Of a DNA stretch of 64,000 nt, positions 3,084 through 63,748 are shown in pieces. Both the position numbers and the translations under genes were made by a program. This stretch comes from Myxococcales bacterium (GTDB taxonomy: Bacteria; Myxococcota_A; UBA9042), in contig PBTG01000079.1 in assembly GCA_002726535.1 (NCBI GenBank), forward strand, positions 9,615 through 73,614, given 5' to 3'. How positions within the stretch are numbered: the stretch's first letter is position 1; each line of letters opens with the position of its first letter. Under the pieces are notes generated by a model. It was not told the origin of the DNA. It made no database searches and saw only the letters and a program-made list of their open reading frames with translations.

Positions 3084-3209
3084 TAGATCCGTGAACCGAG
3101 GAACCCTAGTGCTCGGGATGGATCGGCCCTCGCCACTGCGGGGGCTTTTTCTTTGCAACGGGAATCCTAGTTCGAACAGGCCTAGATAGGCCGCAACACT
3201 GACGCCAAA

Positions 3210-9921: not shown

Positions 9922-12900
9922 GTGTCTGAAGCAAAGAAACTCGACGCTCGGATGCTCCAGTGGCAGGACCAGTTAAGCGGCCTGACTGAGACAAACAGGG
10001 AGCAAGTAACACGCACATTGGCGCGTTCAATCAGCGGGACAGTGGCCGATCTGAAAGTTGCCTACAGCAAGTTCAACGCATCAGAAGGAACGAGCAACCG
10101 ATACACCATCGAAAGCCAGACGGTGAGATTCAGAGAGCTCACCAAAGCAGCCGAGGGGTTGATAGGCCCAGGAGCGCTAAAGAACATCAAGGCGATCTAT
10201 GAAAACGATCTAAACGACGCCTACTCGCTCGGGACGTCTGCAAGCAGAGATCTCACCAAGATCGTTGATGGCGCGGACACAAGCGCACAAGCAATGATCT
10301 CGAAGATGCCTGTAGCTGCGCAGGCAGCAGCAGGTCAGAACTTGATGCAGTTCTGGGACAAAGAAAAAGCAGCCTTAACCAACAAAGTCAGAGAAGCGAC
10401 CCTCTCCGCATTGCAGCGCGGCAAAGGATGGGCATCAGCTCAAAAAGACATCGCACAGGCCCTTCGCTCAAGTGGCCAGACAATCCTGAGGGGTAGAGAC
10501 GAGCTCAGCGTCACGGCCCGCGGCGGAATCGTGATGAACCTCGAGCAGCGGGCTGATCTGATCGCAAAGACGGAGATGGCTAACGCTTACATCCAGGGCC
10601 AGATATCGCAGTACAAACAAAACGGATACACACACGGCAGATGGTCGGCCACGGGTGAAAGAACTTGCCCGTTTTGTGTGAGTCGTGAGGGCAACATCTA
10701 TACCCTCGACGAGCTCGAAGGCGCGATCCCTGCGCATCCTCGCTGTCGTTGCACGATCGCCCCTGTCCTTGAGGAGAACGTCAAGAACGTCCAGAACGCA
10801 AGGGACCAGGGAGCGTCGGCGGCCCTGAACCTTGACGACGCTGGATGGACGGCAATACGTCAACAACGATTCAACGAATACCAGAAGTTCACCGGCAAGC
10901 CATTAGCTGATCCATCTAGGTGGATGAATGCGCCTACCAGTCGCCAAAAATTTCTAAACCCCAGGGCACAAGGAGACAAGCCCGCGTGGATGCCGTCGGG
11001 GAATGTTGTGCCAAACCTCGAGGGCGCACAGGCCGCCGCGATCAGAGCAAAGGATCTCGAGGCCGCTTCGAAAGAAGACCAGAAGGATCTGGATGCACAG
11101 AACAAAGAGATCGAAAAGCAGAAGCAAGCCGCGAAGCTGGTGAAAGAGCGCAAGGGCGAGGAGTTCACCTTTAAGCGCTTTAGCGACGCTACCGGCGACG
11201 AACCAGGTCCGGACACGAACTGGACTTCCGAGAGGCAGAAGCTGCACGACAAAATTGTTCAGAACTTCCTGAAGGACGGCAAGAAAAGCGCGACTCCAAC
11301 TTTCACCATGTCTGGCGGCGGCCCGGCTTCAGGGAAGGGCTTCATGCTGAAGAAGACCGGCCTAGATCAACCCGGCAAGGTAGTGATTGATGCCGATGAG
11401 ATCAAAAAGCTCATCCCTGAGTACGCCAAAGCCCAGAAGAAAGGCGGCGATGCACAGCAAGCTGCGGCGGGCGTTGTTCACGAGGAGTCGAGCTATCTCG
11501 CCAAGCGAATCATGGGCGAAGCTTCCAAGCGTGGTTTTGACATCGTTCTCGACGGCACTGGAGATAGCGGCATCAAGTCGCTAACCAAAAAGGTTCAGAA
11601 GATGCGCGATGAGGGGTATCGAGTTGAGGGGAAATATGTCAGCGCAGATACGGAGACCGCTGCACAGCGCAACTGGGATCGCTTCCTCAAAACTGGCCGG
11701 CTCCCACCCGAGTGGATGCTCCGCAATGTTCACGCCGACGTCTCGCGCACTTTGCCTAAGGCAATGCAGGACGGCCTGTTCGATGAGATCGAGCTTTATG
11801 ACACGAACAAGTCAGGGGAGCTGCGCAAGGTAGCCAGCCAGAAGGGCAAAAATAATCCAAAGATCCACGACAGCAAACTTTGGGACGACTTCAAGCGCAA
11901 GGGTGAGGCTGGACTTGTCACAAAAGAGCAGGGCGAGCGGCTAATCGAAGCCCGCAAACTGAAGGTGGACGTTAAAGCCAAGAGCAGCCACGGCAAGCAC
12001 AGCAATGCTCGCGCCGAAGGGGCCGAGCCTGGCCCCGATACCGTGTGGACCCTTGACCGCCAGAAGCTCCATAAGGAGATTGTCGACAAGTTCCTCGCCA
12101 ACGGTGCCAAGTCGGCTAACCCGACGTTCACCATGAGCGGAGGCGGCCCCGCTTCAGGTAAAGGCTTCATGCTGAAAGCCACTGGACTCGACAAGCCCGG
12201 AAAGGTCGTTATTGACGCAGACGAGATCAAAAAGCTGATTCCCGAGTATGCGGATGCCCAGAAGAAAGGTGGCAAAGCCCAACAGCAGGCAGCCGGATAT
12301 GTCCACGAAGAATCGAGCTACCTGGCCAAGCGGATCATGGCCGAAGCTGCGAAGCGCAGTTATGACGTCGTACTTGATGGCACAGGCGATAGCGGGATCA
12401 ATTCGCTATCCAAAAAAGTGCAAAAAATGCGTGACCAGGGCTATCGCGTTGAGGCGAAATACGTCAGTGCTGACACCGAGCTGGCTGCGCAAAGGAATTG
12501 GGATCGCTTCCTGAAAACAGGACGCCTACCGCCCGAGTGGATGCTTCGGAACGTTCATGCCGATGTGTCTCGGACACTTCCCGAGGCAATGAAGAAAGGC
12601 CTATTCGACGCGGTGGAGCTGTTTGACACCAATCTGAGCGGCCAACTGCGCAAGGTCGTCAGCCAGAAAGGCAAAAGCAAGCCCGAGATTCTCGACAAGC
12701 AGTTATGGAACGACTTCCAGAACAAGGGAAAAGCCAAGCAGGTCACGCCCGAGGAAGGCGAGGCAATGATCGCCAAGCGAAAGGCCGAGACCGAGGACCT
12801 CTCAAAGACAAGATCTGCAGGCACAGGCAAAACACCCGCAAAGACAAAGCCTTCCCCCACTAAGGCAAAGGAGAGCGACATGGTTGACCGGGCGACGCGA

Positions 12901-15398: not shown

Positions 15399-15437
15399 GG
15401 TTCGAACCTTGACAGGTCCGGTCCGGAAAGGTAAGTT
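15399..15437 (+). promoter_or_regulatory. Sigma70-like promoter preceded by GGTTCGAACC palindrome
   Basis: GGTTCGAACC-TTGACA-N17-TAAGTT, then an AGGAGG RBS and ATG 15467. Confidence 0.45.
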
Positions 15438-16117: not shown

Positions 16118-16309
16118 ATGGCTACAGCCACCTGCATTGCAGCGACCCTGCTCGCTGTCCTATCGGTCCCATTTGCTGTTGTTCTCTGGCTAACCGAGAG
16201 CAAGTATCAGAAGGCGCGTCGCTGGCACAAGGCCGGCGCGACCTACAAGTTGATCGGAGAGCGTCTCGGATGTCACGCAACGACTGCTAAGCGCTGGAGC
16301 CTTGCTTAA
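16118..16309 (+). CDS. Small protein with predicted N-terminal TM helix and C-terminal HTH-like segment
   Basis: N-terminal IAATLLAVLSVPFAVVLWL is hydrophobic. GATYKLIGERLGCHATTAKRW resembles an HTH. A different-frame ORF (15985..16290) overlaps it, so the assignment is uncertain. Confidence 0.3.
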   Translation: MATATCIAATLLAVLSVPFAVVLWLTESKYQKARRWHKAGATYKLIGERLGCHATTAKRWSLA

Positions 16310-21382: not shown

Positions 21383-21856
21383 GTGATACAAAATCATTCA
21401 ATCGGAAGCCTGTTGAGACGTGATAAAAGACCCATGGCATTCGTTGAAATCGATTCCGCGGAAATCATTTATGACGTCCTGGCGTCTGATTCAGCCTTCT
21501 CGGCTTTGATCGGTTCGCTTGAATTCGAAGATGGGAATCAAGACGCTCTCTTAGTCGCTTTGGCCTCAAAACCTCTCGAAGGTATTGACGGCGCGTCTGG
21601 GCTGCTAGTTGTTATCGATAAAGATCCTCAAGTGACATCAAAGCGATTGCTTACTACTCAAGTAGTGATCGATCGAATGTTCACGATCCGTCTGATCCAG
21701 TTCCCGAGCGTCTCCCGCAACCTGCGGGCCGCTACTGAGCGACTCCTCCACATCTTCCCTGGCGCAACAGCGATTCCTCTTGCTGGCCCTGACCTGCTGT
21801 CTGGCGACGGCCAATCAGTCATAAAGCTGCCATCAAATCCTGTTGCACAGACCTAG
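21383..21856 (+). CDS. Hypothetical protein
   Basis: ORF track. Followed by a 20-bp imperfect palindrome at 21857-21876. Confidence 0.35.
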   Translation: MIQNHSIGSLLRRDKRPMAFVEIDSAEIIYDVLASDSAFSALIGSLEFEDGNQDALLVALASKPLEGIDGASGLLVVIDKDPQVTSKRLLTTQVVIDRMFTIRLIQFPSVSRNLRAATERLLHIFPGATAIPLAGPDLLSGDGQSVIKLPSNPVAQT

Positions 21857-21932
21857 TCACGGTTCGAACTGTGACTACTCCGGAACCCTGAAAGGACCGG
21901 GGAATTGATCACCCTTTTACTCACTCATTGCA

Positions 21933-41485: not shown

Positions 41486-41809
41486 ATGGCAGCACAATCT
41501 ACCGGCATGATGAAGCGGCAAGGCTTCCTTGTCGACGAGGCCACAATTCTCGCTAACGGAGTGGCCAAGTCTTTGACCGGCGGCGCTAAGGCACAAGGCC
41601 TGAACATCGGCGCTTATTTCTCCTCCGACGCTGCGGGATCCGTTTCCGTAGCCGATCAGGTCGGCACCGTTCTCGCCACGATCGCCGCACCTTCAGGCGG
41701 CGGCAAAGTGATCGTTGAGCGTGGACGCTTTGAGGTCTACGACGCAACCTCTGTCGTCCTCGACACGACCAGTTTGAGCGCAGGTTCTGTGCAAGTTTCC
41801 TTGTACTGA
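41486..41809 (+). CDS. Hypothetical protein (possible head decoration/accessory)
   Basis: ORF track. Followed by a strong terminator at 41829-41854. Confidence 0.3.
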   Translation: MAAQSTGMMKRQGFLVDEATILANGVAKSLTGGAKAQGLNIGAYFSSDAAGSVSVADQVGTVLATIAAPSGGGKVIVERGRFEVYDATSVVLDTTSLSAGSVQVSLY

Positions 41810-41828
41810 TCCGAACAACAACAACAAA

Positions 41829-41854
41829 AAGGCGCCTCTTCGGGGGCGCTTTTT
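41829..41854 (+). terminator. Rho-independent terminator
   Basis: GGCGCCTC-TTCG-GGGGCGC followed by TTTTTT, at the end of the structural block. Confidence 0.7.
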
Positions 41855-41889
41855 TATTGGGAATACTTCCCTGACTCCGTAGTTACCCG

Positions 41890-42129
41890 ATGGACTGTCA
41901 GAAGTGTAATAAGTGCGGGGCGACTTTTTTCCCAAACGGTGAGGGTGGCTACCACCTCAGGTGGGCAACCGGCAAAGTCGGGAGAGCTGAGGGCCTGGCC
42001 GGGTTGGTTTGCATTCCGTATGGGAACGACGAGTGCATCAACCCAATGCGCCACGTCGCGACGGGCGACACCTGGGCGAAGAGGCTGGCTGAACTCGAGC
42101 GCCTTGAGAAACGAAACGGTTTGAGTTGA
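41890..42129 (+). CDS. Small zinc-ribbon-like protein
   Basis: CQKCNKCG...CIPYGNDEC. Confidence 0.35.
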   Translation: MDCQKCNKCGATFFPNGEGGYHLRWATGKVGRAEGLAGLVCIPYGNDECINPMRHVATGDTWAKRLAELERLEKRNGLS

Positions 42130-42155
42130 CACTTTGGGGTAGGAACGTTTATAAC
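42126..42155 (+). promoter_or_regulatory. Sigma70-like promoter (TTGACA-N17/18-TATAAC), copy 1 of a repeated early promoter family
   Basis: TGAGTTGACA...TTATAACT, with AGGGGGA and then ATG 42182 downstream. Confidence 0.5.
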
Positions 42156-42181
42156 TGAAACGTGTTCAGGGGGACAGCCCG

Positions 42182-42484
42182 ATGTTTATGCTCTCGACAG
42201 ATACAGCCGACACTCGCATCTTGGGCTACACGCTGAACTGTTCGGTGGGTATGGAGGTGTTCAGCACCATGGAGGAGGTTCTCCTGAGAGTCCACGGCGT
42301 CCCTGCTGACCAGCTTTGCTGGGCCTCGCTGGCTGACGCTCTAATCGATCTGACCTGGAGACAGGAGCAGTGGGGGGAGGGCACCATCAGCCAGACCCTC
42401 GGATATTGGGGCGGCGACGGCGTCAAGCGGATCACCATCAACAATCCGATGGGTGTTCGCCTCGAATGGGATGACGTGCTTTGA
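42182..42484 (+). CDS. Hypothetical early protein
   Basis: Preceded by the TTGACA-N17/18-TATAAC promoter at 42126-42155 and an AGGGGGA RBS. Its TGA stop begins the next promoter copy. Confidence 0.4.
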   Translation: MFMLSTDTADTRILGYTLNCSVGMEVFSTMEEVLLRVHGVPADQLCWASLADALIDLTWRQEQWGEGTISQTLGYWGGDGVKRITINNPMGVRLEWDDVL

Positions 42485-42523
42485 GTTGCACGAGTTGACA
42501 AACGGGGCAACATGCCCCATACT
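42483..42523 (+). promoter_or_regulatory. Sigma70-like promoter with palindromic operator in spacer (copy 2)
   Basis: TGAGTTGCACGAG-TTGACA-aacGGGGCAacaTGCCCC-CATACT. The 6-bp arms GGGGCA/TGCCCC lie between -35 and -10. The leading TGA is the stop of gene 42182..42484. Confidence 0.55.
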
Positions 42524-42548
42524 TAAAAAGTCGAGATCAAGCGAACCA

Positions 42549-42734
42549 ATGGCCCAAACCATCACCAACAACAACGAAGCCCTAACGGAGGCCCTGACCC
42601 TAGCCATCAACGCCCCTACAGAGGAATTGAAAAATGAGCTAATTGGGATTGCTGAGGGGATAGCTCAGCAGCTCACGGAAGACGAAATCGAGGCTTGCAA
42701 GGCAGCAGCAAAAGCCAACAAAACCAACTTTTGA
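42549..42734 (+). CDS. Small early protein (61 aa; internal ATG of ORF 42453..42734)
   Basis: The ATG at 42549 lies ~26 nt downstream of the -10 of the 42495-42523 promoter. The upstream part of the ORF track entry covers the promoter itself. Confidence 0.4.
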   Translation: MAQTITNNNEALTEALTLAINAPTEELKNELIGIAEGIAQQLTEDEIEACKAAAKANKTNF

Positions 42735-42753
42735 TCTGGACGGACACAGACCG

Positions 42754-42942
42754 ATGCTTGACCTCTCCCAGATCGAACAAAGCTCCACCCGCTTCCGTTA
42801 CGAGTCCAAGGCCAAAGCCGAGGCATTGCTAGCCATGGCAATCGAGACCGCTCTCGAGTCCGAAAGCTTCGACCTGTTCGACGACGGCTACGGCTTCCGT
42901 GTCCGCATGTTCGAAGATGGCGAGTTCTGCTGTTGCCTGTGA
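42754..42942 (+). CDS. Hypothetical protein
   Basis: ORF track. Confidence 0.3.
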   Translation: MLDLSQIEQSSTRFRYESKAKAEALLAMAIETALESESFDLFDDGYGFRVRMFEDGEFCCCL

Positions 42943-43392
42943 GCTAAGGCTCGAAGGTTTCGCCGAACTCGGTAAGGATCGACATCTGATCCTCTCGGGG
43001 TTTTGGCTCCAGCTCTTTCGGTATATCAACGACAACATCCTCGAAGCGGGTTCGGCAGAAGTAGGGGACATCTCGACCTGAGCCAGAGGTCTCAAACCAC
43101 AGTCGCCCCTTGAGTTCGCCCCTACTCAAATTTTTCACCTGCCCAGAAGTTCTGCACCTTACTCACTTTTAGCGTGAGTGAAAAGCTGAAGCCTATGGGC
43201 CGAACCCACCAACACAAGCCGTCAGATTCGACGCAGGTGGTGAGAATCGGCTCGGGAATATCCGCCCTCCTGCCCTGCTCATTCCGCTCTAGGCGGCCCA
43301 GGTCTGTGCAAATTATATCGTAACCGGCCAAACACTTGGGCGATATTCTTCGGGTCATGGCCTGGCCAAGTTCTTCAGAGTGTTCCGACGGG

Positions 43393-44085
43393 TCAGCGGG
43401 CGATGATGCTCCACCCCGTCCCAGGTCCCTCGACCTGCCAGCGCCTTCCCCAGTTTTTCTCGCTGTATCGAACTGCTTGGCCTGCCGTGATCCAGGTATC
43501 GACGTAGCCACCCTCCACGAGGTTGGCTTCACCGAAGGGATCGTTCACAACCGCTGACTCGCCCTCAAGGCCAATCACACAGGACCAGTGACCGCCGCCC
43601 GAAGGGGAGGAGACATGGCCTTTATGCAGCCAGCCACAGGGAACGGGGAAGCCCTGACGGATCTGATCCTCGAGCGTTTCCCAGCTTGCATCGGTGACGA
43701 ATTCGACGTCTAATCCGTAAGAGCGGAGCGCTGAGATCTGAGCGCTCGAATCCGTTGTATCTCCGTAATGCTCGACGGTCTCCAGATATTCGAGATCGCC
43801 GTTAGGGCCGCTGAGAGTCCCTGGGCGCAGGTACTCGAGCAGCATCGCGCAAGTAGTTGTGAAGCATTGCCTATATCCATGAGGCCCGTTGTCGAGCTGG
43901 ATCATGTGGCGCACTTTCAGGACGCGATCGGATGACTCGAGACCGTTCCTATAGATACGTGCGAACTCATCCAACTCCTCGAGCGTTAGCAGGTCCTCGA
44001 GGTATTCGAAGGCCTGGACCTGATGGGGCTCACCCTTGTAATAGGTGGCCGCATTAACCAGAGAGATCGAGTTGTCGGCTGCCAT
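43393..44085 (-). CDS. Papain-like cysteine peptidase (C39-like/CHAP-like), candidate endolysin
   Basis: Catalytic-type Cys context QCFTTTCAMLLEYL and His context GGGHWSCVIGLEGESAVVNDPFG match the C39-like peptidase pattern (Q..C...M; GH.VV..G.....V.DP). Confidence 0.45.
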   Translation of the reverse strand: MAADNSISLVNAATYYKGEPHQVQAFEYLEDLLTLEELDEFARIYRNGLESSDRVLKVRHMIQLDNGPHGYRQCFTTTCAMLLEYLRPGTLSGPNGDLEYLETVEHYGDTTDSSAQISALRSYGLDVEFVTDASWETLEDQIRQGFPVPCGWLHKGHVSSPSGGGHWSCVIGLEGESAVVNDPFGEANLVEGGYVDTWITAGQAVRYSEKNWGRRWQVEGPGTGWSIIAR

Positions 44086-44131
44086 GGTCGTCTCCGAATC
44101 ACGCCAGGGTTCCGATCAGATCGTCAGCCGC

Positions 44132-44482
44132 TTAACGCCACCTGCGGTCCTGCTGCTCTCGAAGTCTTCTCAGTTCGACCGCTTGATCGTTTACGTGAAA
44201 ATCCATCCGCTCTGATAAATATTTAACGTCTTTTTTAATCTCCGACATGCTGTCGAAGAGGCGATTCATTGCACCTTCAAAATCGTGCTTCGTGATGTAA
44301 TCCTCAGCTACCTTAAGCTCAACAGAATCAATTTTTTGTAAGGCCGTTTCTGCGACCGCTCTGGCCTCCTCCGTTCTCTTAAATGTAAAAGCGCCCCAAC
44401 CGAGAACACTAGAACAAACAGCAGCAATGACGAATTCAGGTAACACGGACTGAAGACAGTTAACCAAGGTTTCCGGCTTCAA
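44132..44482 (-). CDS. N-terminal TM + coiled-coil protein (i-spanin-like / lysis-associated)
   Basis: LPEFVIAAVCSSVLGWGAFTF hydrophobic helix, then a charged helical region. Adjacent to the peptidase gene. Confidence 0.35.
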   Translation of the reverse strand: MKPETLVNCLQSVLPEFVIAAVCSSVLGWGAFTFKRTEEARAVAETALQKIDSVELKVAEDYITKHDFEGAMNRLFDSMSEIKKDVKYLSERMDFHVNDQAVELRRLREQQDRRWR

Positions 44483-44651
44483 TTAATGAAAAAGGGGACT
44501 TAGCCCCCAATTTCTCGAATGAGTCTTTGCGCCTGTTTTTTGTCGATACCTTCGGGCGCATTTCGCAAGCATCGAATCATTACTTCCTGATCGCTAATGG
44601 GCAGCCGCTTGACTCGCCCATTGCTGCCAATAGGGCTCTCTACTTTCTCCA

Positions 44652-44900
44652 CTACTCAGAAAAGCGACGGCGCGGGGCCTTCTTCTTGGGCGCCTCTTCG
44701 ACCTGCTCAGCAGCAGGAGTTTCCTTCACTTCCTCGACGACTGGCTCTTCTTTCTTGGGGGCCTCATCGACGCCGTTTTTCTTGGTCGTGATAGCGCCGA
44801 GCTCTAAAGCCTCGAGGGCATCGGCTGGGTGGTAAAACTCGACGACGTTGCCGGCTAAGTCGTAGTAGGTGGGCTGGGCCATGGTGGGCTGTGAAATCAC
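44652..44900 (-). CDS. Hypothetical protein with Lys/Pro/Glu-rich tail
   Basis: ORF track. C-terminal EAPKKEEPVVEEVKETPAAEQVEEAPKKKAPRRR. Confidence 0.3.
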   Translation of the reverse strand: MISQPTMAQPTYYDLAGNVVEFYHPADALEALELGAITTKKNGVDEAPKKEEPVVEEVKETPAAEQVEEAPKKKAPRRRFSE

Positions 44901-45059
44901 TTCGACTCAGTGTTCCGAGCCTCTCCGTTTTGACCTGGGAACCCTGTTATGTGAAGTCCTGTTGAGATGGGGAGGGGGATAGTGTGTTGAGACTTATGGG
45001 GAGACTTTTAAAACTACCCCTAGTCTATGACTGGGATCTAAGCGAATCAAAGCCCTCTT

Positions 45060-45098
45060 TTAACCGGCTGGTCCTGAGTTCGAATCTCAGGCGACCCA
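45060..45098 (+). other. Partial tRNA 3' end (T-arm + acceptor 3' strand); putative attP core
   Basis: CTGAG-TTCGAAT-CTCAG is a perfect T-stem/T-loop (45074-45090). It is followed by a 7-nt acceptor strand GCGACCC and discriminator A. No complementary 5' acceptor strand or anticodon arm exists upstream, so only the 3' part of a tRNA is present. It lies ~200 nt upstream of the integrase. Confidence 0.5.
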
Positions 45099-45107
45099 TT
45101 CACCATG

Positions 45108-45132
45108 ACCCCCTGGAAATAGGGGGTTTTTT
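45108..45132 (+). terminator. Rho-independent terminator directly after the tRNA-like segment
   Basis: CCCCCT-GGAAAT-AGGGGG followed by TTTTTT. Confidence 0.65.
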
Positions 45133-45295
45133 AATGCCTGACTGGCGGGTTCGGAAACGAATAGGGCCTCGCCTGCCTGTTCGAAGCCGTACAGATATGG
45201 CCTCGAAAACCCTGTTCCGGACAGTTTGGGGTGAACGAGTCACACCATTCTTCTCCCCACATCTCCGGTAAACTGAAAAAGCTGAAAGGCCACAG

Positions 45296-46789
45296 ATGGC
45301 AGCCTCAAAGAGACCGCTCGACCAAGCCAATGGGCAGCTTGCGGCCGTGGGATGCAGGTGGCGGATCCGAGAAGAGAGACGAGTAAATCATTACTACGTC
45401 CGAGGCACGCGAGGCGATGACCGAGGTAAGTCTCGACCAGCTCGCAGTTTTCGCGTTGATGAGCCTGGCGACCTCGAGCGACTGACCACCGCCTTGCTGG
45501 GCTGGGAGAAACAAGCCCAAAAGAGACACAGCACTCTTCACCTGGCCAGCCTTGAGCTCGATCCCGATATTGCTCCCAAGGGAAGTCAGCAGACCTGGGG
45601 GTGGATCCTTGAGCTCTACAGGCCGCTCCTCGCCCCAGGCGGCAAGCTCTCGAAGCAACTTGGAGCGTTCGGCGTCATGGGAGAGGGCGGCTATTTCTCG
45701 AAGCGTTTCACTCCACAGACGGTGGTGCGGACAGAGCACCTCGAGCAATTTGGTCTTTACACGGTCGAGTCGCTAAAGCTGAACTACCTAAATCCGGCCG
45801 TACCGAAACAGGCGAGGGAGTACAGCCGATCGGGTTTCGCCGACGCCAAGCAAATTGTCTACGACATGAGCAAGCGGGGCATCGCCGCCGCGACGCCAGC
45901 GCTCAAAGCTCAGTTAAAACTGTTGCGCAGCGAGGCGGGGGTAGCTCCGGCAGCGCCTCGATTCATGCCTACCGATGAAGAGGCTGTCGATTGGATTGAT
46001 CAGCTAATGGAACTCGATCCTTTTCGGGGAAAGTTTTTTGCTTTCGTCTACACCTTCGGCCTTCGCCCTCACGAGGTTTGGCACATTAATTCCTTCCCCG
46101 GCGAGGTGAATGTCGAAAACATTTGCACTCCCAATGTCATCGAAGTGGGGACATTTGAGGGAGATGAAGAGACGAAAACAGGCTTTCGCTTCGCAGTCGC
46201 TTGTCCTGCTGAATTGATCGACCGATGGAAGTTAAGCGACCTGGAGGTGATCAAGGGGTGGCACGAAGAGCTTCTTGATCGCCACAAGATTAAGACGATC
46301 GAGCTATCAGATGGCCAAACTATCTATGCGAACAATCGCGCCCTAGGTAGCAAAGTTGCTCACTGGCTAAATAATAAAACCAAACCTGATATGGAGGTGC
46401 CCGTGAAACTGTTCGGACGGATCGACTTCACGATGAAGCGGGGCCAGACGCAGAAGGCTCCAAAAAAAGGACGGGTTCAGGCGTACACGATTCGTCACAT
46501 GTGGGCGCTACGCGCTAAGCGGTTGACAGCTTGGAGTACCGCAGCGAAAGCCGAGGCGATGGGTCACAGCGAATCCGTTCATTCCAAGCGCTATCTCGTC
46601 GAGGAACGTAAAGCGGACAAACTGCGGTCTTTAATCGATGCAACCGCGCCACCTGTCGAAGTAATTCCTCAAGCACCGGCAGAAGACGACGGCATTGCCA
46701 AGCTCCGCAAAGCGAAGGGCCTGCTCGATCAAGGTTTGATCACTCAAGAAAAATTTGATCTGCTACAGGACAAAGTGCTTGGCCTTTAG
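45296..46789 (+). CDS. int: Tyrosine integrase
   Basis: C-terminal IRHMWALRAKRL...AKAEAMGHSESVHSKRYL gives the R...H..R....Y catalytic signature. LRPHEVWHINSF supplies the first Arg. Adjacent to the att-like tRNA fragment. Confidence 0.85.
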   Translation: MAASKRPLDQANGQLAAVGCRWRIREERRVNHYYVRGTRGDDRGKSRPARSFRVDEPGDLERLTTALLGWEKQAQKRHSTLHLASLELDPDIAPKGSQQTWGWILELYRPLLAPGGKLSKQLGAFGVMGEGGYFSKRFTPQTVVRTEHLEQFGLYTVESLKLNYLNPAVPKQAREYSRSGFADAKQIVYDMSKRGIAAATPALKAQLKLLRSEAGVAPAAPRFMPTDEEAVDWIDQLMELDPFRGKFFAFVYTFGLRPHEVWHINSFPGEVNVENICTPNVIEVGTFEGDEETKTGFRFAVACPAELIDRWKLSDLEVIKGWHEELLDRHKIKTIELSDGQTIYANNRALGSKVAHWLNNKTKPDMEVPVKLFGRIDFTMKRGQTQKAPKKGRVQAYTIRHMWALRAKRLTAWSTAAKAEAMGHSESVHSKRYLVEERKADKLRSLIDATAPPVEVIPQAPAEDDGIAKLRKAKGLLDQGLITQEKFDLLQDKVLGL

Positions 46790-46980
46790 ATCAGGCCGAG
46801 ACGTAATTCGACTCGCTGGATATGCCAAAGAAAGACGCCCCGGCTGCTGAAGGGGTTCTTCTTCCTGTAGTGAATGCCTTCGTCAAACATCCCGCTTGTC
46901 TTCATCCGGCGCAGAGTTTTTTCGTGGACTCCGAGCATTTCGGCCATCTGATTGGTCGAGATCCACATGGTTGCAGCCAT
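46786..46980 (-). CDS. xis: Excisionase-like HTH DNA-binding protein
   Basis: ISTNQMAEMLGVHEKTLRRMKTSGMF resembles AlpA/Xis-family HTH. Convergent with and overlapping the integrase end by 4 nt. Confidence 0.5.
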   Translation of the reverse strand: MAATMWISTNQMAEMLGVHEKTLRRMKTSGMFDEGIHYRKKNPFSSRGVFLWHIQRVELRLGLI

Positions 46981-46982
46981 GC

Positions 46983-47507
46983 TCAGTCCCCCAGGCTGCG
47001 ATCTTTATTCCCCTGAACGCCCATGTCGCCCTGATATCGACCTGTCTGCGAATAGTTCGAATCAGGTGCCGAGTCCAGGGCACGAACGCGCAACTGGCAG
47101 AGCTCGAGACCTGGATAGATCGGGAGCACCTGGAACCTCCTGACGTTTTGGAACTCGAGGGTGATGCGGCCTGACCAGCCCGGATCGATGTAGCCGGCCA
47201 GCGCGTGCTGCCAGCCGGCGCGAGCTGCAGAACTCCGGAGACAGACTTCGGCCTCCATCCTGTCGGTCAGCATGACGACTTCCTGGGTATGGGTCAGGAT
47301 CCACTCGCCTGGGTCGACCAGGAAAGGGTTGCCGACGTGAAGGCCTGAAATATCCACCTCGTAGGTGCCGCCGCCTGGCGATTCGACGACCAGGGCTGTT
47401 CCGATACGAAGGTTTACAGAAGCAGGGTTAACGAGCGCATAGTCAGCAGGGCTCAGCCCACCATTGCGCATCCATTCCCTGAGCTGGCGGTCTACGAGGG
47501 TTGCCAT
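46983..47507 (-). CDS. dcd: dCTP deaminase family protein
   Basis: PASVNLRIG near the N-terminus and AGYIDPGWSGRITLEFQNV (G.IDPG..G..TLE..N) are the dCTP deaminase/dUTPase-superfamily signatures. Confidence 0.8.
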   Translation of the reverse strand: MATLVDRQLREWMRNGGLSPADYALVNPASVNLRIGTALVVESPGGGTYEVDISGLHVGNPFLVDPGEWILTHTQEVVMLTDRMEAEVCLRSSAARAGWQHALAGYIDPGWSGRITLEFQNVRRFQVLPIYPGLELCQLRVRALDSAPDSNYSQTGRYQGDMGVQGNKDRSLGD

Positions 47508-47601
47508 GGTGAACTCTTGATGGGCTCAGTATATCTCGGTTCGTATCAGCATCACGCAAGGGTTCGAACCCGCATAACCTAATCCTAGCTTTTCTCTGGC
47601 C

Positions 47602-47763
47602 ATGATTTACGACGTCTGCGTCACCTGTGACGGCCAAAGGTATGAAACCGTAATCGAAGCCAGGGACATGGATCAGGCCATTGCAAGCGTTTGCAGCGCC
47701 TACGGGGAGTGCGAGATTTCGAGCATCGCCACCCATCTCCACTACGGATCCAAGCCCTCGTGA
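47602..47763 (+). CDS. Small Cys-containing ORF (53 aa; below ORF-track size cutoff)
   Basis: ATG at 47602. Translation MIYDVCVTCDGQRYETVIEARDMDQAIASVCSAYGECEISSIATHLHYGSKPS. Its TGA stop (47761-47763) is the first triplet of the TGAGTTGCAC promoter element, the same arrangement as the other cassettes. Confidence 0.25.
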   Translation: MIYDVCVTCDGQRYETVIEARDMDQAIASVCSAYGECEISSIATHLHYGSKPS

Positions 47764-47802
47764 GTTGCACCTGTTGACAGCCTAGGGTATTCACTGCATA
47801 AT
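47761..47802 (+). promoter_or_regulatory. Sigma70-like promoter (copy 3, divergent spacer)
   Basis: TGAGTTGCACCTG-TTGACA-N17-CATAAT. It has the upstream TGAGTTGCAC box but lacks the GGGGCA palindrome. Confidence 0.5.
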
Positions 47803-47825
47803 TAAATCGACAGCGAACGAGACCA

Positions 47826-48647
47826 ATGACCGCTTTCACCACCCCCGCCGAAATCGTCTCCGCCCTCACTAATCGGATCCGCACCTGCCTGTTAGGTCAG
47901 GGCTACCGCCAGGCCGAGGCCGCTCAGCAGTACGTCGGGCTGAAGGAATATGAAGCCCGCCGGAAGCTTGGCCCCCTGGTTGCCGCCAGGATTGAGAACT
48001 ACTTCGGCCACACGCTTAAATCTGCCGACATTGATTTCCGCACCATCCAGAAGATCACCGAGGCCACCGTCAAGAACGCCACCGTGCTCCTCGAAGATCG
48101 CGTCTGCCGCAACATCGGCGAAGGCGAGACCCTTACCGAGATCAGCCTCGAGCTAGGCCAGGAGAACCTGATCGAGGGCGTTGTCTGCGGAGAGACCGCC
48201 CAGGGCGAACGCTTTCACATCGATGTCCACATGCTGTGGAACTACCGCTACGGAGAGAACAGCGCTAACGGCGTTTTGACCATCTATCCGCAGTTCAGAG
48301 GCACCCGCCAAGGCGTGCCCATGGCCGGGAAGCCTCAGCAGTCCATCGCAACCGCTGCAAAGGAAGCTGCCAAGGCCGAGCGCGAGGCTGCCAAGGCTGC
48401 GCGCCGCGCAGAGCTCCGGGCAAAATTCGCCAAGGCTCCCGAGCGCCTGGCTCGTGAAATGGAGAAGGACCTCAGAGACTGGTCAGACACCCACCCCACC
48501 GCGCCGCAGTGGGCGTTCATCCGCGACGCCGCCCGCGCCCTGACCGCAGAGCAGCTCAGCGAATGGTTCGCCGCTGGTGCCCGAACCTCCGGCGACATTG
48601 AGTCGAAGCTCAAACGCCAGTTCCGAGACCGTGTTTTGATTGCCTGA
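47826..48647 (+). CDS. Hypothetical early protein (273 aa)
   Basis: Downstream of the promoter at 47774-47802. C-terminal Ala/Lys/Glu-rich helix. No recognised domain. Confidence 0.45.
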   Translation: MTAFTTPAEIVSALTNRIRTCLLGQGYRQAEAAQQYVGLKEYEARRKLGPLVAARIENYFGHTLKSADIDFRTIQKITEATVKNATVLLEDRVCRNIGEGETLTEISLELGQENLIEGVVCGETAQGERFHIDVHMLWNYRYGENSANGVLTIYPQFRGTRQGVPMAGKPQQSIATAAKEAAKAEREAAKAARRAELRAKFAKAPERLAREMEKDLRDWSDTHPTAPQWAFIRDAARALTAEQLSEWFAAGARTSGDIESKLKRQFRDRVLIA

Positions 48648-48687
48648 GTTGCACGACTTGACAGATGGGGCACCTTGCCCCCATACT
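48645..48687 (+). promoter_or_regulatory. Sigma70-like promoter with palindromic operator (copy 4)
   Basis: TGAGTTGCACGAC-TTGACA-gatGGGGCAccttGCCCCC-ATACTT. The leading TGA is the stop of 47826..48647. Confidence 0.55.
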
Positions 48688-48711
48688 TAAGGAGTCCCCG
48701 AGAGAAGCCAA

Positions 48712-49041
48712 GTGAACACCACTAACACCACCACCATCGAGCAACTGACCAACGGCCAAGGCGTCAACGCCCTTTGTGCTCTTACCGGTGCGCAGATCGT
48801 TTACGACGACAACGCCAACAAAGTCACGATGGTTTTCAAAAAGCAGGCCGGCCCACGCGGTGCAAAGCTCACCCACCTACAGATCGCCTACAACACAGGC
48901 ACTGATCTTTACGACATCACCGCTTACAAGCTGAACAAAAAGACCTTCCAAATGCCCACCGTCAAAGAACTGGACGGTTGCTACGGCGACATGCTCAATG
49001 AGGTCTGCGAGCGCATCACTGACCTCTGCCTGCGCTTCTGA
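48712..49041 (+). CDS. Hypothetical early protein
   Basis: Downstream of the promoter/operator at 48658-48687, with a GGAG RBS. Confidence 0.4.
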   Translation: MNTTNTTTIEQLTNGQGVNALCALTGAQIVYDDNANKVTMVFKKQAGPRGAKLTHLQIAYNTGTDLYDITAYKLNKKTFQMPTVKELDGCYGDMLNEVCERITDLCLRF

Positions 49042-49093
49042 TCAAACGGGTCCTTCTGGACCCCTCTCTTATCACTATTCGAACCCTGATCTA

Positions 49094-49258
49094 ATGGCTC
49101 TCATTTTTTACACCGCTGTTCACGTCTGCAAGGGCCAGCAAATTGTCCAGGCCGAGACCACATTGCAGGCAGCGCAGAAGGCGGCCGCGTATTGGCGCCT
49201 GAAGACCACGGCTGGCATTGACGTCTACCGCCACGACACCGAAATCGTTCTCACCTGA
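49094..49258 (+). CDS. Hypothetical small protein (internal ATG of ORF 48998..49258)
   Basis: The ATG is preceded by TTCGAACC 16 nt upstream. Confidence 0.3.
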   Translation: MALIFYTAVHVCKGQQIVQAETTLQAAQKAAAYWRLKTTAGIDVYRHDTEIVLT

Positions 49259-49262
49259 TGCA

Positions 49263-49430
49263 ATGGCCAATTACAGCACCTACGTCGCCCGCCTGCGCAC
49301 CGAGAACTTGATCAAGCTGATCGAGGCCACGACCCGCCACCAGGCAGGTCTCAAGCTTCCCCTGACGCAGGCCCGCAATATCGAGCAGCTACAGGAACTG
49401 CAGGCCGAGCTCTTCCGCCGGATTGCTTGA
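49263..49430 (+). CDS. Hypothetical small protein (internal ATG of ORF 49218..49430)
   Basis: Its stop TGA is the first triplet of the next promoter copy. Confidence 0.3.
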   Translation: MANYSTYVARLRTENLIKLIEATTRHQAGLKLPLTQARNIEQLQELQAELFRRIA

Positions 49431-49471
49431 GTTACACCTCTTGACAGATGGGGCACCTTGCCCCCACAATT
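49428..49471 (+). promoter_or_regulatory. Sigma70-like promoter with palindromic operator (copy 5)
   Basis: TGAGTTACACCTC-TTGACA-gatGGGGCAccttGCCCCC-ACAATT. Confidence 0.5.
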
Positions 49472-49492
49472 GATTCAACAGCAACCAACCCG

Positions 49493-49780
49493 ATGACACG
49501 CTCAACCCAACGCACCCCCGAAGAGCTCGCAGCATTCAAGGCCGCCAACCTCGCCAACTCAACCTGCAAGGGTGGCCCGGTCATCGTCGAACCTCGCAAG
49601 GCCCCGAAAAAGTTTACGGTCACTTGGACGACACCTGAAGGCCAGTTCGGTTGGATCACAGTTCATGCCGTCAAGACTGCCGAAGCTGCGGCCGAGACAT
49701 TCTTCGCAGCCCGCAACCGTGGCCAGGTCCCGACCAACGCAGATATCGAGCTGATCAAGAGGGGAGGTCAGGAGATCTGA
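49493..49780 (+). CDS. Hypothetical early protein (internal ATG of ORF 49448..49780)
   Basis: Downstream of the promoter/operator at 49441-49471. Its stop TGA begins the next promoter copy. Confidence 0.4.
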   Translation: MTRSTQRTPEELAAFKAANLANSTCKGGPVIVEPRKAPKKFTVTWTTPEGQFGWITVHAVKTAEAAAETFFAARNRGQVPTNADIELIKRGGQEI

Positions 49781-49819
49781 GTTGCACGAGTTGACAAATG
49801 GGGCAACATGCCCCATAAT
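49778..49819 (+). promoter_or_regulatory. Sigma70-like promoter with palindromic operator (copy 6)
   Basis: TGAGTTGCACGAG-TTGACA-aatGGGGCAacaTGCCCC-ATAATT. Near-identical to copy 2. Confidence 0.55.
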
Positions 49820-49841
49820 TAATTCATACGCAACCAATCCG

Positions 49842-50030
49842 ATGACCTACGTCACTCAGCGCCAGTTCCACTCAGTCACCAAGAACGGTGTTTCGATGGG
49901 CATGGTTTTCATCGACCGCGAGGCGGCTGACAAGAACGCCGAGAGCATGAACAAGATCTGGAAGGGACAGCACACCTGGGGCGTCATCTCCTGGAACGCC
50001 GACGACTGCTTCACCAACGAGAACGCTTGA
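49842..50030 (+). CDS. Hypothetical early protein (internal ATG of ORF 49782..50030)
   Basis: Downstream of the promoter/operator at 49791-49819. Followed by the terminator at 50049-50075. Confidence 0.4.
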   Translation: MTYVTQRQFHSVTKNGVSMGMVFIDREAADKNAESMNKIWKGQHTWGVISWNADDCFTNENA

Positions 50031-50048
50031 AACCTGACACACGCCCAG

Positions 50049-50075
50049 GAGGTCCTAGAAGGGGCCTCTTTTTTA
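50049..50075 (+). terminator. Rho-independent terminator ending the early plus-strand cassette array
   Basis: GAGGTCC-TAGAAG-GGGCCTC followed by TTTTTT. Confidence 0.55.
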
Positions 50076-50105
50076 TGGGTGCTTGTTCTTACACGAACAA
50101 CCCTC

Positions 50106-50426
50106 CTAAGGCTCTTCTCGGTCCATGTAGGGGGCTCTCAGCCTCATCTCTCCGCCAAGCAGGGTCGCGCCCTCTTTTTTCTCCGTGAATTTGAAGTCGG
50201 CCGATGTGTCATCAGCGTCCCATTGCATTCGAAGCTGTTCGGTCTGGTGATCCACGCCGCGCATGACTAGATCGGTGCGCCAATCGGCCCAAACGTCGAG
50301 CCAATTGCTGACGATCATTTTGAGCCATCTGTTGTTTTTGTATTTACCTGAATTCCACAGGCGCCAGATCGTTTCGACCGTCAGCGCCTGAAGCAGCTCC
50401 TGCCAGGTGAAGACCCGCGAGCTCAT
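50106..50426 (-). CDS. Hypothetical Trp-rich protein
   Basis: ORF track. Confidence 0.35.
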   Translation of the reverse strand: MSSRVFTWQELLQALTVETIWRLWNSGKYKNNRWLKMIVSNWLDVWADWRTDLVMRGVDHQTEQLRMQWDADDTSADFKFTEKKEGATLLGGEMRLRAPYMDREEP

Positions 50427-55525: not shown

Positions 55526-55603
55526 TGGACATTTCATCCACAATCGATGGATAAAACGTCCAAAACTTTGGACAAAACGGCCATGACTATGGACAAAATG
55601 TCC
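55526..55603. repeat. Iteron cluster: 3 x 14-bp direct repeats TGGAYAAAAYGKCC at 21-bp spacing plus a degenerate fourth copy
   Basis: TGGATAAAACGTCC 55548-55561, TGGACAAAACGGCC 55569-55582, TGGACAAAATGTCC 55590-55603, and degenerate TGGACATTTCATCC 55526-55539. Flanked by an AT-rich stretch CTCTATACATATAAGTGTAAATGG and pyrimidine direct repeats TCTCTTCTATTC x2 (55470-55505). Confidence 0.6.
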
Positions 55604-55625
55604 ACGATTTATTGAGCAGAACAGC

Positions 55626-55787
55626 CTAGAGCCTGCCTTCCTTTTCCCATTTCTGAGCCAGTCGATAGAACGTTGATCGACTGATCAATGGCGCGAGCTG
55701 TTTCGATATTTCGAGCAGGGTCGCACCCTCGGCCAGGGCCTCCCTGGTAACCCCGATAATTCGCTGTTCGTACCGCTCCCAGTCCAT
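55626..55787 (-). CDS. Small HTH DNA-binding protein (53 aa; below ORF-track cutoff)
   Basis: Minus-strand translation MDWERYEQRIIGVTREALAEGATLLEISKQLAPLISRSTFYRLAQKWEKEGRL has a canonical HTH (ATLLEISKQL..ISRSTFYRL). The overlapping listed ORF 55609..55956 is an alternative frame with a less protein-like translation. Confidence 0.4.
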   Translation of the reverse strand: MDWERYEQRIIGVTREALAEGATLLEISKQLAPLISRSTFYRLAQKWEKEGRL

Positions 55788-58027: not shown

Positions 58028-58924
58028 ATGACTAAAACTAAGCTTCATGTCCCAAGTTCGGTCGATCAATTTTTCAACTCGATGGGCCGCTATAAAGTCC
58101 TGGAGCCTGCTCTGGTTATCGAGCTTGCCCGGAAGGTCCAGGCTTGGAGGCAGCACCCGGACGGCCCTGACGATTGTCCGCTAGTCGTTAAACGTCTGGG
58201 CTTGGCAGCGCGAAATAAGTTGGTCGCCCACAACCTTCGTTTAGTCGTAAGGATTTGGCGGGACTGTTACGCCATGCGCGTGACAGCAAAAGATCCCGGT
58301 CTCGCTGATATGTTTCAGCTCTCTGCACAGCAGTTGGTTCGGGCCGCTGAGTTATTCGATCCACTTAAGGGGCGCACTTTTTCAACTTATGCCTCAACGT
58401 GGATCCATAAAGGAATGAAAGAATTTATAGGTGGGCAGCGCCGAACGGTTCGAATCCCGTTGAGTCATTATTTCATTATCAAGGCGGCTCTACTTATCCA
58501 GAGCAATCGCTCTGCGGCCGGCTTGCCTAAATTGTCCATGACAGAGCTAGTGGATGAGATGTCGCAAACTCGGCAGGTTATGCCGACGCCAGAGCAGCTC
58601 GGCGATTGGATTCGGTGCCACGATCTCACTGATCTCAGGTCGTTTTCCGAACGCATCGGGGATGAGAAAACTGAGCTAGGTGATTTGATTGCCAGCCGTC
58701 AGACCGAGGGCGATGACGCCAACGACGCGGTCCAGCGTGCTCGTGATGCCATGGCCGATCTCACGACCATTGAGCGTCGCGTTGTCGAGAAGATGCACCT
58801 GCGGGGCCGTGGTTCGATCGGGTATCGAAGCTGCGCCAAAGTGCTAAAGATCTCTGAGCTTCAGGTCCGCGCTGCAGAGGCCAGGGCTTTCGATCAGATC
58901 AAACTCTCAATCTCGGTAGACTGA
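58028..58924 (+). CDS. Sigma-70 family RNA polymerase sigma factor
   Basis: Region-2-like VAHNLRLVVRIWRD..AELFDPLKGRTFSTYASTWIHKGMKEFI (cf. DLIQEG..GL..A..KFD...G..FSTYA.WWIR) and region-4-like IERRVVEKMHLRGRGSIGYRSCAKVLKISELQVRAAEARAF. Confidence 0.8.
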   Translation: MTKTKLHVPSSVDQFFNSMGRYKVLEPALVIELARKVQAWRQHPDGPDDCPLVVKRLGLAARNKLVAHNLRLVVRIWRDCYAMRVTAKDPGLADMFQLSAQQLVRAAELFDPLKGRTFSTYASTWIHKGMKEFIGGQRRTVRIPLSHYFIIKAALLIQSNRSAAGLPKLSMTELVDEMSQTRQVMPTPEQLGDWIRCHDLTDLRSFSERIGDEKTELGDLIASRQTEGDDANDAVQRARDAMADLTTIERRVVEKMHLRGRGSIGYRSCAKVLKISELQVRAAEARAFDQIKLSISVD

Positions 58925-63228: not shown

Positions 63229-63439
63229 GCGAGGCCAGGACTGGTCGGCGCTGCTTCAGGCTGCAGAGCTGGAGGCTCCGGGCTATGACGAAGCCGTCGC
63301 CAATACGAATGAGCTAGTGGCCAATAAACAACTGATCGAGCGAAACATCCAAGACGCCAAGTCGAAAGGAGGGCGGAAAAGGTAGAGGTTGCGCTCCTGA
63401 GCGTCGTGGGGTACGATTAATTCGACGGCAGGAAACCCG

Positions 63440-63748
63440 ATGATCACCACCACCAACGTCCAGGCCAACATCGCTGACTTCGTCGAGCGACTGAACGACA
63501 AGTTTCCCGAGCGCCGCTACGGCGTGATGGTTGGCAAAAAGAATGCCCGCATCTTCTGGCAGAACGTCTACAACGGCCAGGTTCGCGAGGGAGCGTCGGC
63601 CTTCTGTTTCGTCCGGCTGGAGGATGGCGCCATCCTTAAGTGTGATAGCTGGAAGGCCCCTGCTAAGGGCGTCCGCGCCTGGCTCGATCAGGTATTGGCC
63701 AACGACCTGCAGGAGGTCGACCAGTACACCGGCTGGCTCTACCGCTGA
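63440..63748 (+). CDS. Hypothetical protein
   Basis: ORF track. Confidence 0.35.
   Translation: MITTTNVQANIADFVERLNDKFPERRYGVMVGKKNARIFWQNVYNGQVREGASAFCFVRLEDGAILKCDSWKAPAKGVRAWLDQVLANDLQEVDQYTGWLYR

Follow-up and report, generated by a model that had tools for sequence, protein, structure and literature searches.

PeSL-type promoter elements probably link exchangeable ORFan cassettes in an uncultured siphovirus related to cyanophage P-SS2

Introduction

Why would one phage set nearly the same promoter, often with the same palindrome inside it, between one small gene and the next? This question is raised by a 64,000-nucleotide stretch of contig PBTG01000079.1 (positions 9,615 to 73,614; hereafter the window), which is filed under a "Myxococcales bacterium" assembly (GCA_002726535.1) and in which six elements built on a TTGACA hexamer lie in two arrays, at 42122-42548 and 47761-49841. 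An initial annotation had read the region as host-sigma70 early transcription units under one common regulator, possibly a lysogeny repressor or a host factor, bound at a GGGGCA/TGCCCC palindrome. Judging from the sequence comparisons reported here, the six elements are probably composite regulatory cassettes resembling the PeSLs (early promoter plus stem-loop) of T4-like phages, carried by a temperate siphovirus related to P-SS2. A point that goes beyond the annotation is that these elements are the joints at which related phages swap cargo genes.

PeSLs were described in the T4-like myoviruses phi1, RB49, PST and nt-1 (Arbiol et al. 2010, PMC2839356; Comeau et al. 2014, PMC4122927). Each comprises the stop codon of the upstream gene, a sigma70-like early promoter, a stem-loop (often a G tract followed by a C tract, mostly between -35 and -10) and the start codon of the next gene. 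They gather in hyperplastic regions ahead of ORFans, i.e. orphan open reading frames (ORFs), and serve as exchange points between close relatives; the stem-loop is a terminator or attenuator, one of them terminating as well as rrnB T1 in a lacZ assay (PMC2839356; PMC4122927). No PeSL-like elements outside T4-like phages were reported in the literature that we searched. A study of the cyanomyovirus S-PM2 sought PeSLs and judged them too sparse to matter, and the P-SS2 paper lists BPROM promoters, with no repeated elements or spacer palindromes. The design itself is thus already known from T4-like phages; what is new here is its occurrence in temperate P-SS2-like siphoviruses.

Architecture of the six elements

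All six TTGACA hexamers reported by the initial annotation were found, on the plus strand at 42126, 42495, 47774, 48658, 49441 and 49791, and the sigma70-type character of the promoters was borne out. Five of them scored 10-11 of 12 consensus matches in a promoter scan, with spacers of 17-18 nt and the -10 hexamers CATACT, CATAAT, CATACT, CACAAT and CATAAT (in order); these five are the only sites scoring at least 10/12 on either strand of the window. The sixth promoter, that of element 1, reads TTGACA-N18-TATAAC.

The copies share sequence beyond the two hexamers. A box, TGAGTT(G/A)CAC, is common to five of the six elements, and TGAGTTGCAC-N3-TTGACA forms a 19-nt repeat family with five copies, next to a 51-nt family with four. 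The conserved box sequence GAGTTGCAC, which spans about -47 to -39, has exactly four copies in the window, always within the array, and the same holds for the inverted repeat GGGGCA-N3-TGCCCC, whose four occurrences all lie in promoter spacers; the combined promoter-plus-dyad pattern gave 4 matches against 0.08 expected. This dyad measures 15 bp (6-N3-6) and is centred at about -21, between -35 and -10, where a bound protein would obstruct RNA polymerase, just as the annotation had pointed out for four copies. Its spacing, given there as three or four nucleotides, is always N3 and never N4. The loop reads ACA or CCT in the window, and copies 4 and 5 have one additional C ahead of the -10 hexamer.

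Each element is 60-67 bp long and fills the entire gap from the stop codon of one gene to the start codon (ATG or GTG) of the next, with the promoter 45-50 nt upstream of that start. The description of the region as a string of promoter-gene cassettes stands. The upstream box and the rule that an element begins at the upstream TGA hold for elements 2-6, in which the TGA of the box is in frame. They fail for element 1 (42126), which has no box and in which the in-frame stop is the TGA at 42127-42129, inside the -35 hexamer, rather than the TGA at 42122. Stop codons in each of the three frames, considered as a general feature, occur in only 4/6 elements. None of the cargo ORFs matched Pfam, and no more than three fall into PHROG families, none of which has an assigned function; the gene upstream of element 1 (41890-42129) belongs to PHROG 484.

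Between promoter and start codon lies an A/C-rich leader (GCAACCAACCCGATG) with no GGAG, except possibly in element 4. A common mode of translation initiation without a Shine-Dalgarno sequence is suggested for the cassettes. The leaders at 49466-49496, 49815-49845 and 63413-63443 are A/C-rich (GCAACCAAYCCGATG) without Shine-Dalgarno, and elements of the related contig L002 have CAACCACCACA-N-ATG.

Conservation and cargo exchange among relatives

Related contigs (designated by L numbers) were found through homologues of the phage-encoded sigma factor, of a 106-aa flanking protein and of the 273-aa cargo protein, and further ones through exact look-ups of two flanking window proteins and a metagenome scan with a pattern that put no constraint on the spacer. 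In relatives with a backbone identity of 72-78%, the elements are 90-100% conserved. Between the window and L073, e.g., the elements are 90-96% identical in a backbone of ~78% and the ORFs between the elements do not match; in L101, the element is unchanged beside a 106-aa protein with just 60% identity.

Among closer relatives (94-97% identical), the sequences part precisely at the elements, and the ORFans that these enclose have been added, lost or substituted. The clearest case is L080 (94-95% identical to the window), where homology stops at the elements: an additional element with a 68-aa ORF is inserted at element 2, a 69-aa ORF takes the place of window positions 42527-42944, and homology ends right after the -35 hexamer of element 3 to resume at element 5, with a 177-aa ORF where the window has the 273-aa gene and the element-4 cassette. 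All four upstream ORFs in L080 end at the TGA of the box. In L079 (97% identical) the cargo of element 6 is replaced, and L081, L083 and L098 contain other cassette sets; altogether, cassette number or content differs in L070, L072, L073, L079, L080, L081, L083, L098 and L101. The homology junctions vary in position inside an element (behind the -35, behind the -10 or at the leader) and do not fall at the dyad, which fits homologous rather than site-specific recombination.

Alignment of 15 dyad-bearing copies (window plus six other contigs) showed an invariant -35 hexamer and almost invariant arms; variation is found in the three nucleotides that follow the -35 and in the loop (ACA, CCT, TCT or TGT). 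In five further copies, from L098, L100 and L101, the arms are unchanged and the loops read TCT, CCT and ACA. Arm variants are limited to a right-arm C>T change, giving a G.U pair in three copies (two of the 15 tabulated and L078), and one A.C end pair; no compensatory arm changes were found in the 20 copies.

Elsewhere the searches came back empty. The region had no Megablast match among 50,697 phage records, exact IMG/VR scans returned one unrelated match for the promoter-plus-dyad pattern and none for box plus promoter, and a leader-based IMG/VR pattern retrieved unrelated promoters only. P-SS2, over the 47.5 kb covered, has no such array and no enrichment of GTTCGAAC, a second palindrome treated below. 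The lineage of Flores-Uribe et al. was considered as a match and proved to be a different phage group. Other phages with a homologue of the 273-aa cargo protein have arrays of repeated promoter-like elements of their own, at 915-6940 in L002, 340-3698 in L003, 5942-11646 in L044 and 5902-7176 in L048, whose conserved spacer motifs are CTAGCTA together with an extended -10, AAGGCCT..AGGCCTT ahead of a T run, CACGATCA, and GTATGcCATAC, which overlaps the -10, respectively.

Assignment to PeSL-type cassettes

Because their anatomy and their behaviour both match those of the PeSLs of T4-like phages, we consider it likely that the six elements are composite regulatory cassettes of this type. The likeness covers the intergenic unit running from upstream stop to next start, the strong sigma70-type promoter, the GGGG..CCCC inverted repeat between -35 and -10 (here in 4/6 copies), the clustering of many copies in hyperplastic regions before ORFans, and the indel or replacement junctions of close relatives within the elements (window against L079, L080, L081 and L083). 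There are also differences. The genome is that of a temperate P-SS2-type siphovirus, whereas PeSLs come from lytic T4-like myoviruses; a box of mixed composition, GAGTTGCAC, stands where those have an AT-rich stretch upstream of the -35; the leader, rich in A and C, has no Shine-Dalgarno sequence; the arm sequence is fixed across phages; the scaffold also carries dyads unable to form hairpins; and the arrays flank the integration module. The AT-rich region and the Shine-Dalgarno sequence are descriptive of coliphage PeSLs rather than defining. Terminator activity and the formation of mini-circles between neighbouring elements are further traits of PeSLs; for the window elements, the hairpin is a prediction.

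According to this model, each element supplies the stop of the upstream gene, the box, a near-consensus promoter and the short A/C-rich stretch that leads to the following start codon, and the promoters would be read by the primary sigma factor of the host. Homologous recombination between the repeated elements, within or between co-infecting or resident phages, would insert, delete and replace cassettes and would make the two regions beside the integration module hyperplastic. GGGGCA-N3-TGCCCC would be the "stem-loop" part of the composite. The number of promoters weighs against this assignment: simulated sequences held 2.6 ± 1.6 sites at 10/12 against the 5 observed, a bare count that is not above chance alone. 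Since such sites are not rare in simulation, significance rests on the extra sequence that the copies have in common.

Two other known systems invite comparison. Morons of lambdoid and other temperate phages (Hendrix et al.) are regarded as products of illegitimate recombination that bring along unrelated promoters and terminators of their own (PMC2839356, PMC2784084). The cassettes resemble them in being short accessory genes with their own transcription and no assigned function, carried by a temperate siphovirus, and in that they would sit near the prophage ends; they differ in that one conserved linker is common to all cassettes and is itself the recombination joint. Halovirus HF2 (PMC8707807), a tailed virus, likewise has repeated intergenic promoter-containing elements, although its promoters are of the archaeal type.

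The design of stop codon, strong host-type promoter, GGGG..CCCC dyad and start codon thus recurs as the ORFan-swapping joint of open-ocean P-SS2-like siphoviruses, which suggests that phages may have arrived convergently at conserved promoter linkers as a general means of keeping their genomes plastic. It also suggests a concrete mechanism for the turnover of accessory genes beside the integration module of marine temperate phages. Finally, the locus offers testable parts for marine picocyanobacteria, for which few promoters are characterized: a short, strong promoter, three candidate operators and a phage sigma factor in which DNA-reading residues are changed.

Table 1 Elements, cargo genes and associated features of the window.
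Feature	Coordinates	Strand	Anatomy or description	Cargo and neighbouring genes
Element 1	42122..42181	+	-35 42126-42131; 18-nt spacer holding TGGGGTAGGA; -10 TATAAC 42150-42155; no box, no dyad	100-aa ORFan 42182-42484; stop of gene 41890-42129 is the TGA within the -35
Element 2	42482..42548	+	TGA/box 42482-42491; -35 42495-42500; dyad GGGGCAacaTGCCCC 42504-42518; -10 CATACT 42518-42523	ORFans 42549-42734 and 42754-42942
Element 3	47761..47825	+	TGA/box 47761-47770; -35 47774-47779; dyad-less spacer CCTAGGGTA; -10 CATAAT 47797-47802	273-aa gene 47826-48647, PHROG 36669, function unknown
Element 4	48645..48711	+	TGA/box 48645-48654; -35 48658-48663; dyad GGGGCAcctTGCCCC 48667-48681; -10 CATACT 48682-48687	ORFs 48712-49041, 49094-49258 and 49263-49430
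Element 5	49428..49492	+	TGA/box variant GAGTTACAC 49428-49437; -35 49441-49446; dyad 49450-49464; -10 CACAAT 49465-49470	95-aa ORFan 49493-49780
Element 6	49778..49841	+	TGA/box 49778-49787; -35 49791-49796; dyad 49800-49814; -10 CATAAT 49814-49819	62-aa ORFan 49842-50030
Degenerate seventh element	63383..63439	+	TAG stop; TTGCGC 63389-63394; 17-nt spacer; TACGAT 63412-63417; A/C-rich leader as in elements 5 and 6	DUF7717 gene 63440-63748
First promoter region of second array	47545..47601	+	GGTTCGAACC dyad (core 47562-47569); weak CATAAC -10	
Canonical intrinsic terminator closing second array	50047..50070	+	10-bp stem, then T run	
Putative tyrosine integrase	45296..46789	+	497 aa; 25% identity over 316 aa to P-SS2 integrase	
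Divergent phage-encoded sigma-70 family protein	58028..58924	+	Group-2-like; counterpart of P-SS2 ORF113	

Role of the palindrome

The function of the dyad is less clear than that of the element as a whole. We tentatively regard it as a DNA site for a dimeric protein that would occlude RNA polymerase; a PeSL-type RNA hairpin attenuating read-through from upstream is nearly as likely, and it is improbable that the dyad serves as neither. The two roles are not exclusive. The operators of well-known repressors, e.g. lambda OR/OL, tetO and LexA boxes, lie in or across the -35/-10 spacer, and the 15-bp dyad, centred at about -21, resembles them in that a bound dimer would exclude RNA polymerase. 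It is unlike them in having no known cognate protein and no regulator-adjacent operator, and in being missing from the main lytic promoters. Some support for protein binding comes from the spacers of relatives. The same scaffold holds GGTTCGAACC in L070, L101 and L102 and CCTACGGGTAGG in L100, neither of which forms a stable hairpin, and the related arrays have the non-hairpin motifs CTAGCTA (L002), CACGATCA (L044) and GTATGcCATAC (L048); such dyads in one scaffold slightly favour protein binding. The authors of the PeSL studies also speculated that the GGGG..CCCC motif might be a protein target (PMC2839356; PMC4122927).

Several observations count against an operator. Elements 1 and 3 lack the dyad, which is confined to four cassette promoters, and no autoregulatory site lies beside a regulator gene. 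Family scans of 28 ORFs in and around the arrays gave only weak helix-turn-helix (HTH) signals (46786-46980, excisionase-like; 55626-55787; 16118-16309), none tied to the dyad. The hairpin is present in the minimum-energy fold of all four dyad copies, with modest z-scores (-1 to -3), the arm variants of relatives are compatible with an RNA hairpin, and PeSL stem-loops have been shown experimentally to terminate transcription (PMC2839356; PMC4122927). Two candidate binders were set aside. The 55-aa ORF 49263-49430, considered as a ribbon-helix-helix protein, is modelled by AlphaFold (pLDDT 84) as two long helices with no strand; the 273-aa protein is an unlikely binder, as L080 keeps dyad promoters and lacks that gene at the homologous position.

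If the hairpin were the functional form, read-through RNA would fold into a 6-bp GC-rich hairpin ahead of the A/U-rich -10 region, which would attenuate or terminate transcription or stabilize the 3' end and so insulate the cassettes from one another. We consider this possible, though less likely than not. Composition and position match those of PeSL stem-loops, the hairpin is predicted in all four copies, and the internal arm variants are all G.U-compatible. Moreover, the promoters heading the arrays of the window (elements 1 and 3) have no dyad and every following promoter has one. A rule that the first promoter of an array lacks the dyad also holds in L080; it fails in L081 and L098, whose first-in-array promoters (at 1063 and 1947, respectively) bear the dyad. 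Other points against the hairpin are the lack of a U run, with none of the four copies called by a terminator scan whereas operon ends use canonical terminators (e.g. that closing the second array), the absence of compensatory changes, the modest z-scores, and the alternative dyads and spacer motifs of relatives, which cannot form hairpins.

The model of the initial annotation, a vertically inherited early region of host-sigma70 units with one regulator on the dyad, has become unlikely. In its favour, the dyad is exact, with a constant N3 and a variable centre, and lies between -35 and -10; other dyads take the same place in the homologous promoters of relatives. Nevertheless, only 4/6 promoters have it, and cargo differing among near-identical relatives leaves no fixed early operon. 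A lysogeny repressor in particular is improbable, given that the dyad is absent from the promoters which such a repressor must silence: those of the replication, recombination, structural and late operons lack it, and the replication, recombination and structural ones bear GTTCGAAC instead. No cognate DNA-binding protein was found for the proposed common repressor, the 53-aa and 63-aa HTH candidates giving only sub-threshold Pfam matches. The suggestion of a host factor fared no better. A promoter-plus-dyad scan of 185,579 species-representative genomes returned 11 scattered single matches in unrelated taxa, none cyanobacterial, against a chance expectation of ~17 (hand estimate from 18 specified bases and 596 Gb, both strands), i.e. 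no host regulon and no prophage copy.

The stoperators of cluster A mycobacteriophages offer a further comparison; they are asymmetric sites of 13-14 bp, distributed genome-wide and bound by a monomeric immunity repressor that blocks elongation (PMC9283540, PMC6550527). Like them, the dyad is a short phage-specific site repeated in one orientation in short intergenic gaps, often touching stop or start codons, and the site differs among relatives. Unlike them, it is symmetric, occurs only in promoter spacers of accessory cassettes and has no known binder.

A more speculative proposal, to which we give a low probability, is that one mobile scaffold (box, TTGACA, 17-18 nt spacer, YATAMT and A/C-rich leader) circulates among uncultured temperate marine cyanosiphoviruses with interchangeable spacer dyads, GGGGCA-N3-TGCCCC, GGTTCGAACC and CCTAC-GG-GTAGG, each of which would address a different phage regulator. 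If this were true, recombination in an element would both move accessory genes and rewire the regulator that controls them. The third of these dyads, CCTAC-GG-GTAGG, fills the spacer of the same promoter scaffold at 2510 of L100 (minus strand), and the dyad-less spacers of element 1 (TGGGGTAGGA, 42132-42149) and element 3 (CCTAGGGTA, 47780-47796) resemble decayed forms of it. The first promoter region of the second array is positionally homologous to a strong TTGACA-gttccGGTTCGAACCct-TATAAT promoter in L070, L101 and L102.

Sigma factor usage and remaining alternatives

The promoter type named by the initial annotation stands, but the phage encodes a sigma factor of its own (Table 1), so that reading by the host has to be argued and not assumed. 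The phage protein aligns with cyanobacterial SigA across regions 2-4. Its segment aligned with the -12 readers of SigA is FSTYASTWIHKGMK versus FSTYATWWIRQAIT, with WIHKGMK where SigA has WIRQAIT, and the segment aligned with the -35 readers is ISELQVRAAE versus VTRERIRQIE; from E. coli sigma70 genetics and structures, we take these to contain the -12 and -35 reading residues. Among nine members of the sigma family, the WIHKGMK segment is invariant and the region 4.2 segment varies despite the common invariant TTGACA. Since the -35 segment of the phage sigma is altered and variable while TTGACA is invariant, the host primary sigma factor appears to read the array. The C that begins the -10 hexamer in 5/6 window copies and in nearly all copies of relatives is a point against host reading, being unusual for a primary-sigma promoter.

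Reading of the array by the phage sigma factor as a middle gene class is quite unlikely. The C at -12 (CATAAT, CATACT, CACAAT) would then reflect the altered region 2.4, in line with both the predominance of C at this position and the family-wide invariance of WIHKGMK at what are presumably -12-reading positions. The authors of the P-SS2 paper proposed that the group 2 sigma factor reads canonical promoters. However, TTGACA is invariant in all copies and relatives, whereas the R-E pair of region 4.2 is missing from the phage sigma, and this segment varies between relatives with the same promoters; in L070 the scaffold contains a perfect TTGACA-N17-TATAAT; and the sigma gene itself lies in an operon behind a different promoter type. 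In relatives, a second Sigma70_r2 protein is encoded directly behind the large terminase, in a part that the window does not reach, as is P-SS2 ORF003, the first corresponding to ORF113. Sigma loci were recorded at 18300-19076 in L073 and 16394-17182 in L075, and a pattern-based IMG/VR search for close relatives of the sigma factor found none.

A role of the dyad as a structural signal in DNA is highly improbable. Its 6-bp stem and 3-nt loop match the geometry of the early-promoter hairpins of phage N4, and the cassette arrays adjoin an integrase gene, as might be expected of integron-attC-like sites for a tyrosine recombinase. An N4-type promoter would require a virion RNA polymerase; no giant RNA polymerase was found among the large ORFs scanned, the 1734-aa ORF being a fusion of Mu F-like and zeta-toxin-like parts, and the tape measure protein marks a siphovirus. 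The scattered homology junctions do not coincide with the dyad, as attC-like sites would demand, and fit homologous recombination; the integrase also has its own attP-like tRNA fragment. As for chance matches or duplicated coding fragments, the latter raised by the initial annotation, the number of 10/12 sites exceeds that of simulated sequences only modestly, but this explanation is refuted by the comparative data, as the copies are all intergenic and on one strand, share 19-51 nt beyond the hexamers and are kept in other genomes with different flanks.

The second palindrome

GTTCGAAC occurs 9 times in the window against 1.2 expected (at 3170, 13757, 15400, 21862, 29189, 47562, 54966, 55825 and 62304), and 6/9 copies are intergenic. 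The copies at 15400 and 55825 are separated by 1 nt from a TTGACA -35 downstream (centre near -41.5), and a 22-bp inverted repeat at 21855-21876 has the palindrome as its centre. Relatives are equally enriched in it, often 7-10 nt downstream of a GGTAGACT motif. GTTCGAAC may be the site of a second regulator or a promoter element for a phage sigma factor.

Genome and host context

The window encodes a tape measure protein, tail fibre proteins, an endolysin, a primase, a DnaB-like helicase, RecT, SSB, RusA, a PD-(D/E)XK exonuclease, ThyX, a dCTP deaminase and an excisionase-like HTH protein. It belongs to an uncultured temperate phage related to cyanophage P-SS2, assigned to the siphoviruses because of the tape measure protein. 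The nearest isolate is P-SS2, a Prochlorococcus siphovirus (45% primase identity) that has gene content in common with the window, including the group-2-like sigma factor; the host is therefore probably a marine picocyanobacterium. That this host is uncultured and deduced from such relatedness counts against the cassette model. The array is identical in contigs of several separate marine metagenome samples and hence is no assembly artefact; Tara assemblies also contain this phage. An NCBI entry identical to the 106-aa protein (50106-50426, minus strand) is labelled as a "Myxococcales bacterium" metagenome-assembled genome (MAG; locus tag CMH53_04485); a binning error probably placed the contig of this phage in a marine MAG.

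The two arrays stand on both sides of a block of lysis genes, attP, int, xis and dcd. Directly upstream of the integrase gene, at 45040-45130, we noted a tRNA-like 3' fragment (T arm and acceptor strand) with a terminator-like hairpin. This fragment, called by neither ARAGORN nor Rfam, is likely the attP core; ARAGORN found no tRNA and Rfam no match in 41500-50300.

The segment 55470-55610 holds a tandem series of three to four 21-bp iterons (TGGAYAAAAYGKCCA, with a perfect copy at 55590-55604), beside a pyrimidine- and AT-rich tract and between a small HTH gene and the operon of a 288-aa protein, the helicase and the primase; relatives have TGGACAAAACGGGAA or TTCCCGAAACGGGAA at the same place. 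This region is probably the replication origin. The 6-N3-6 repeats TGGACAAAATGTCCA at 55526-55610 were considered as related operators; relatives have tandem 21-bp iterons with mixed half-sites and an AT-rich neighbour here, which an origin fits better. The 1734-aa ORF (9922-15126) joins a phage Mu F-like head morphogenesis domain to a zeta-toxin/AAA_33 kinase-like domain.

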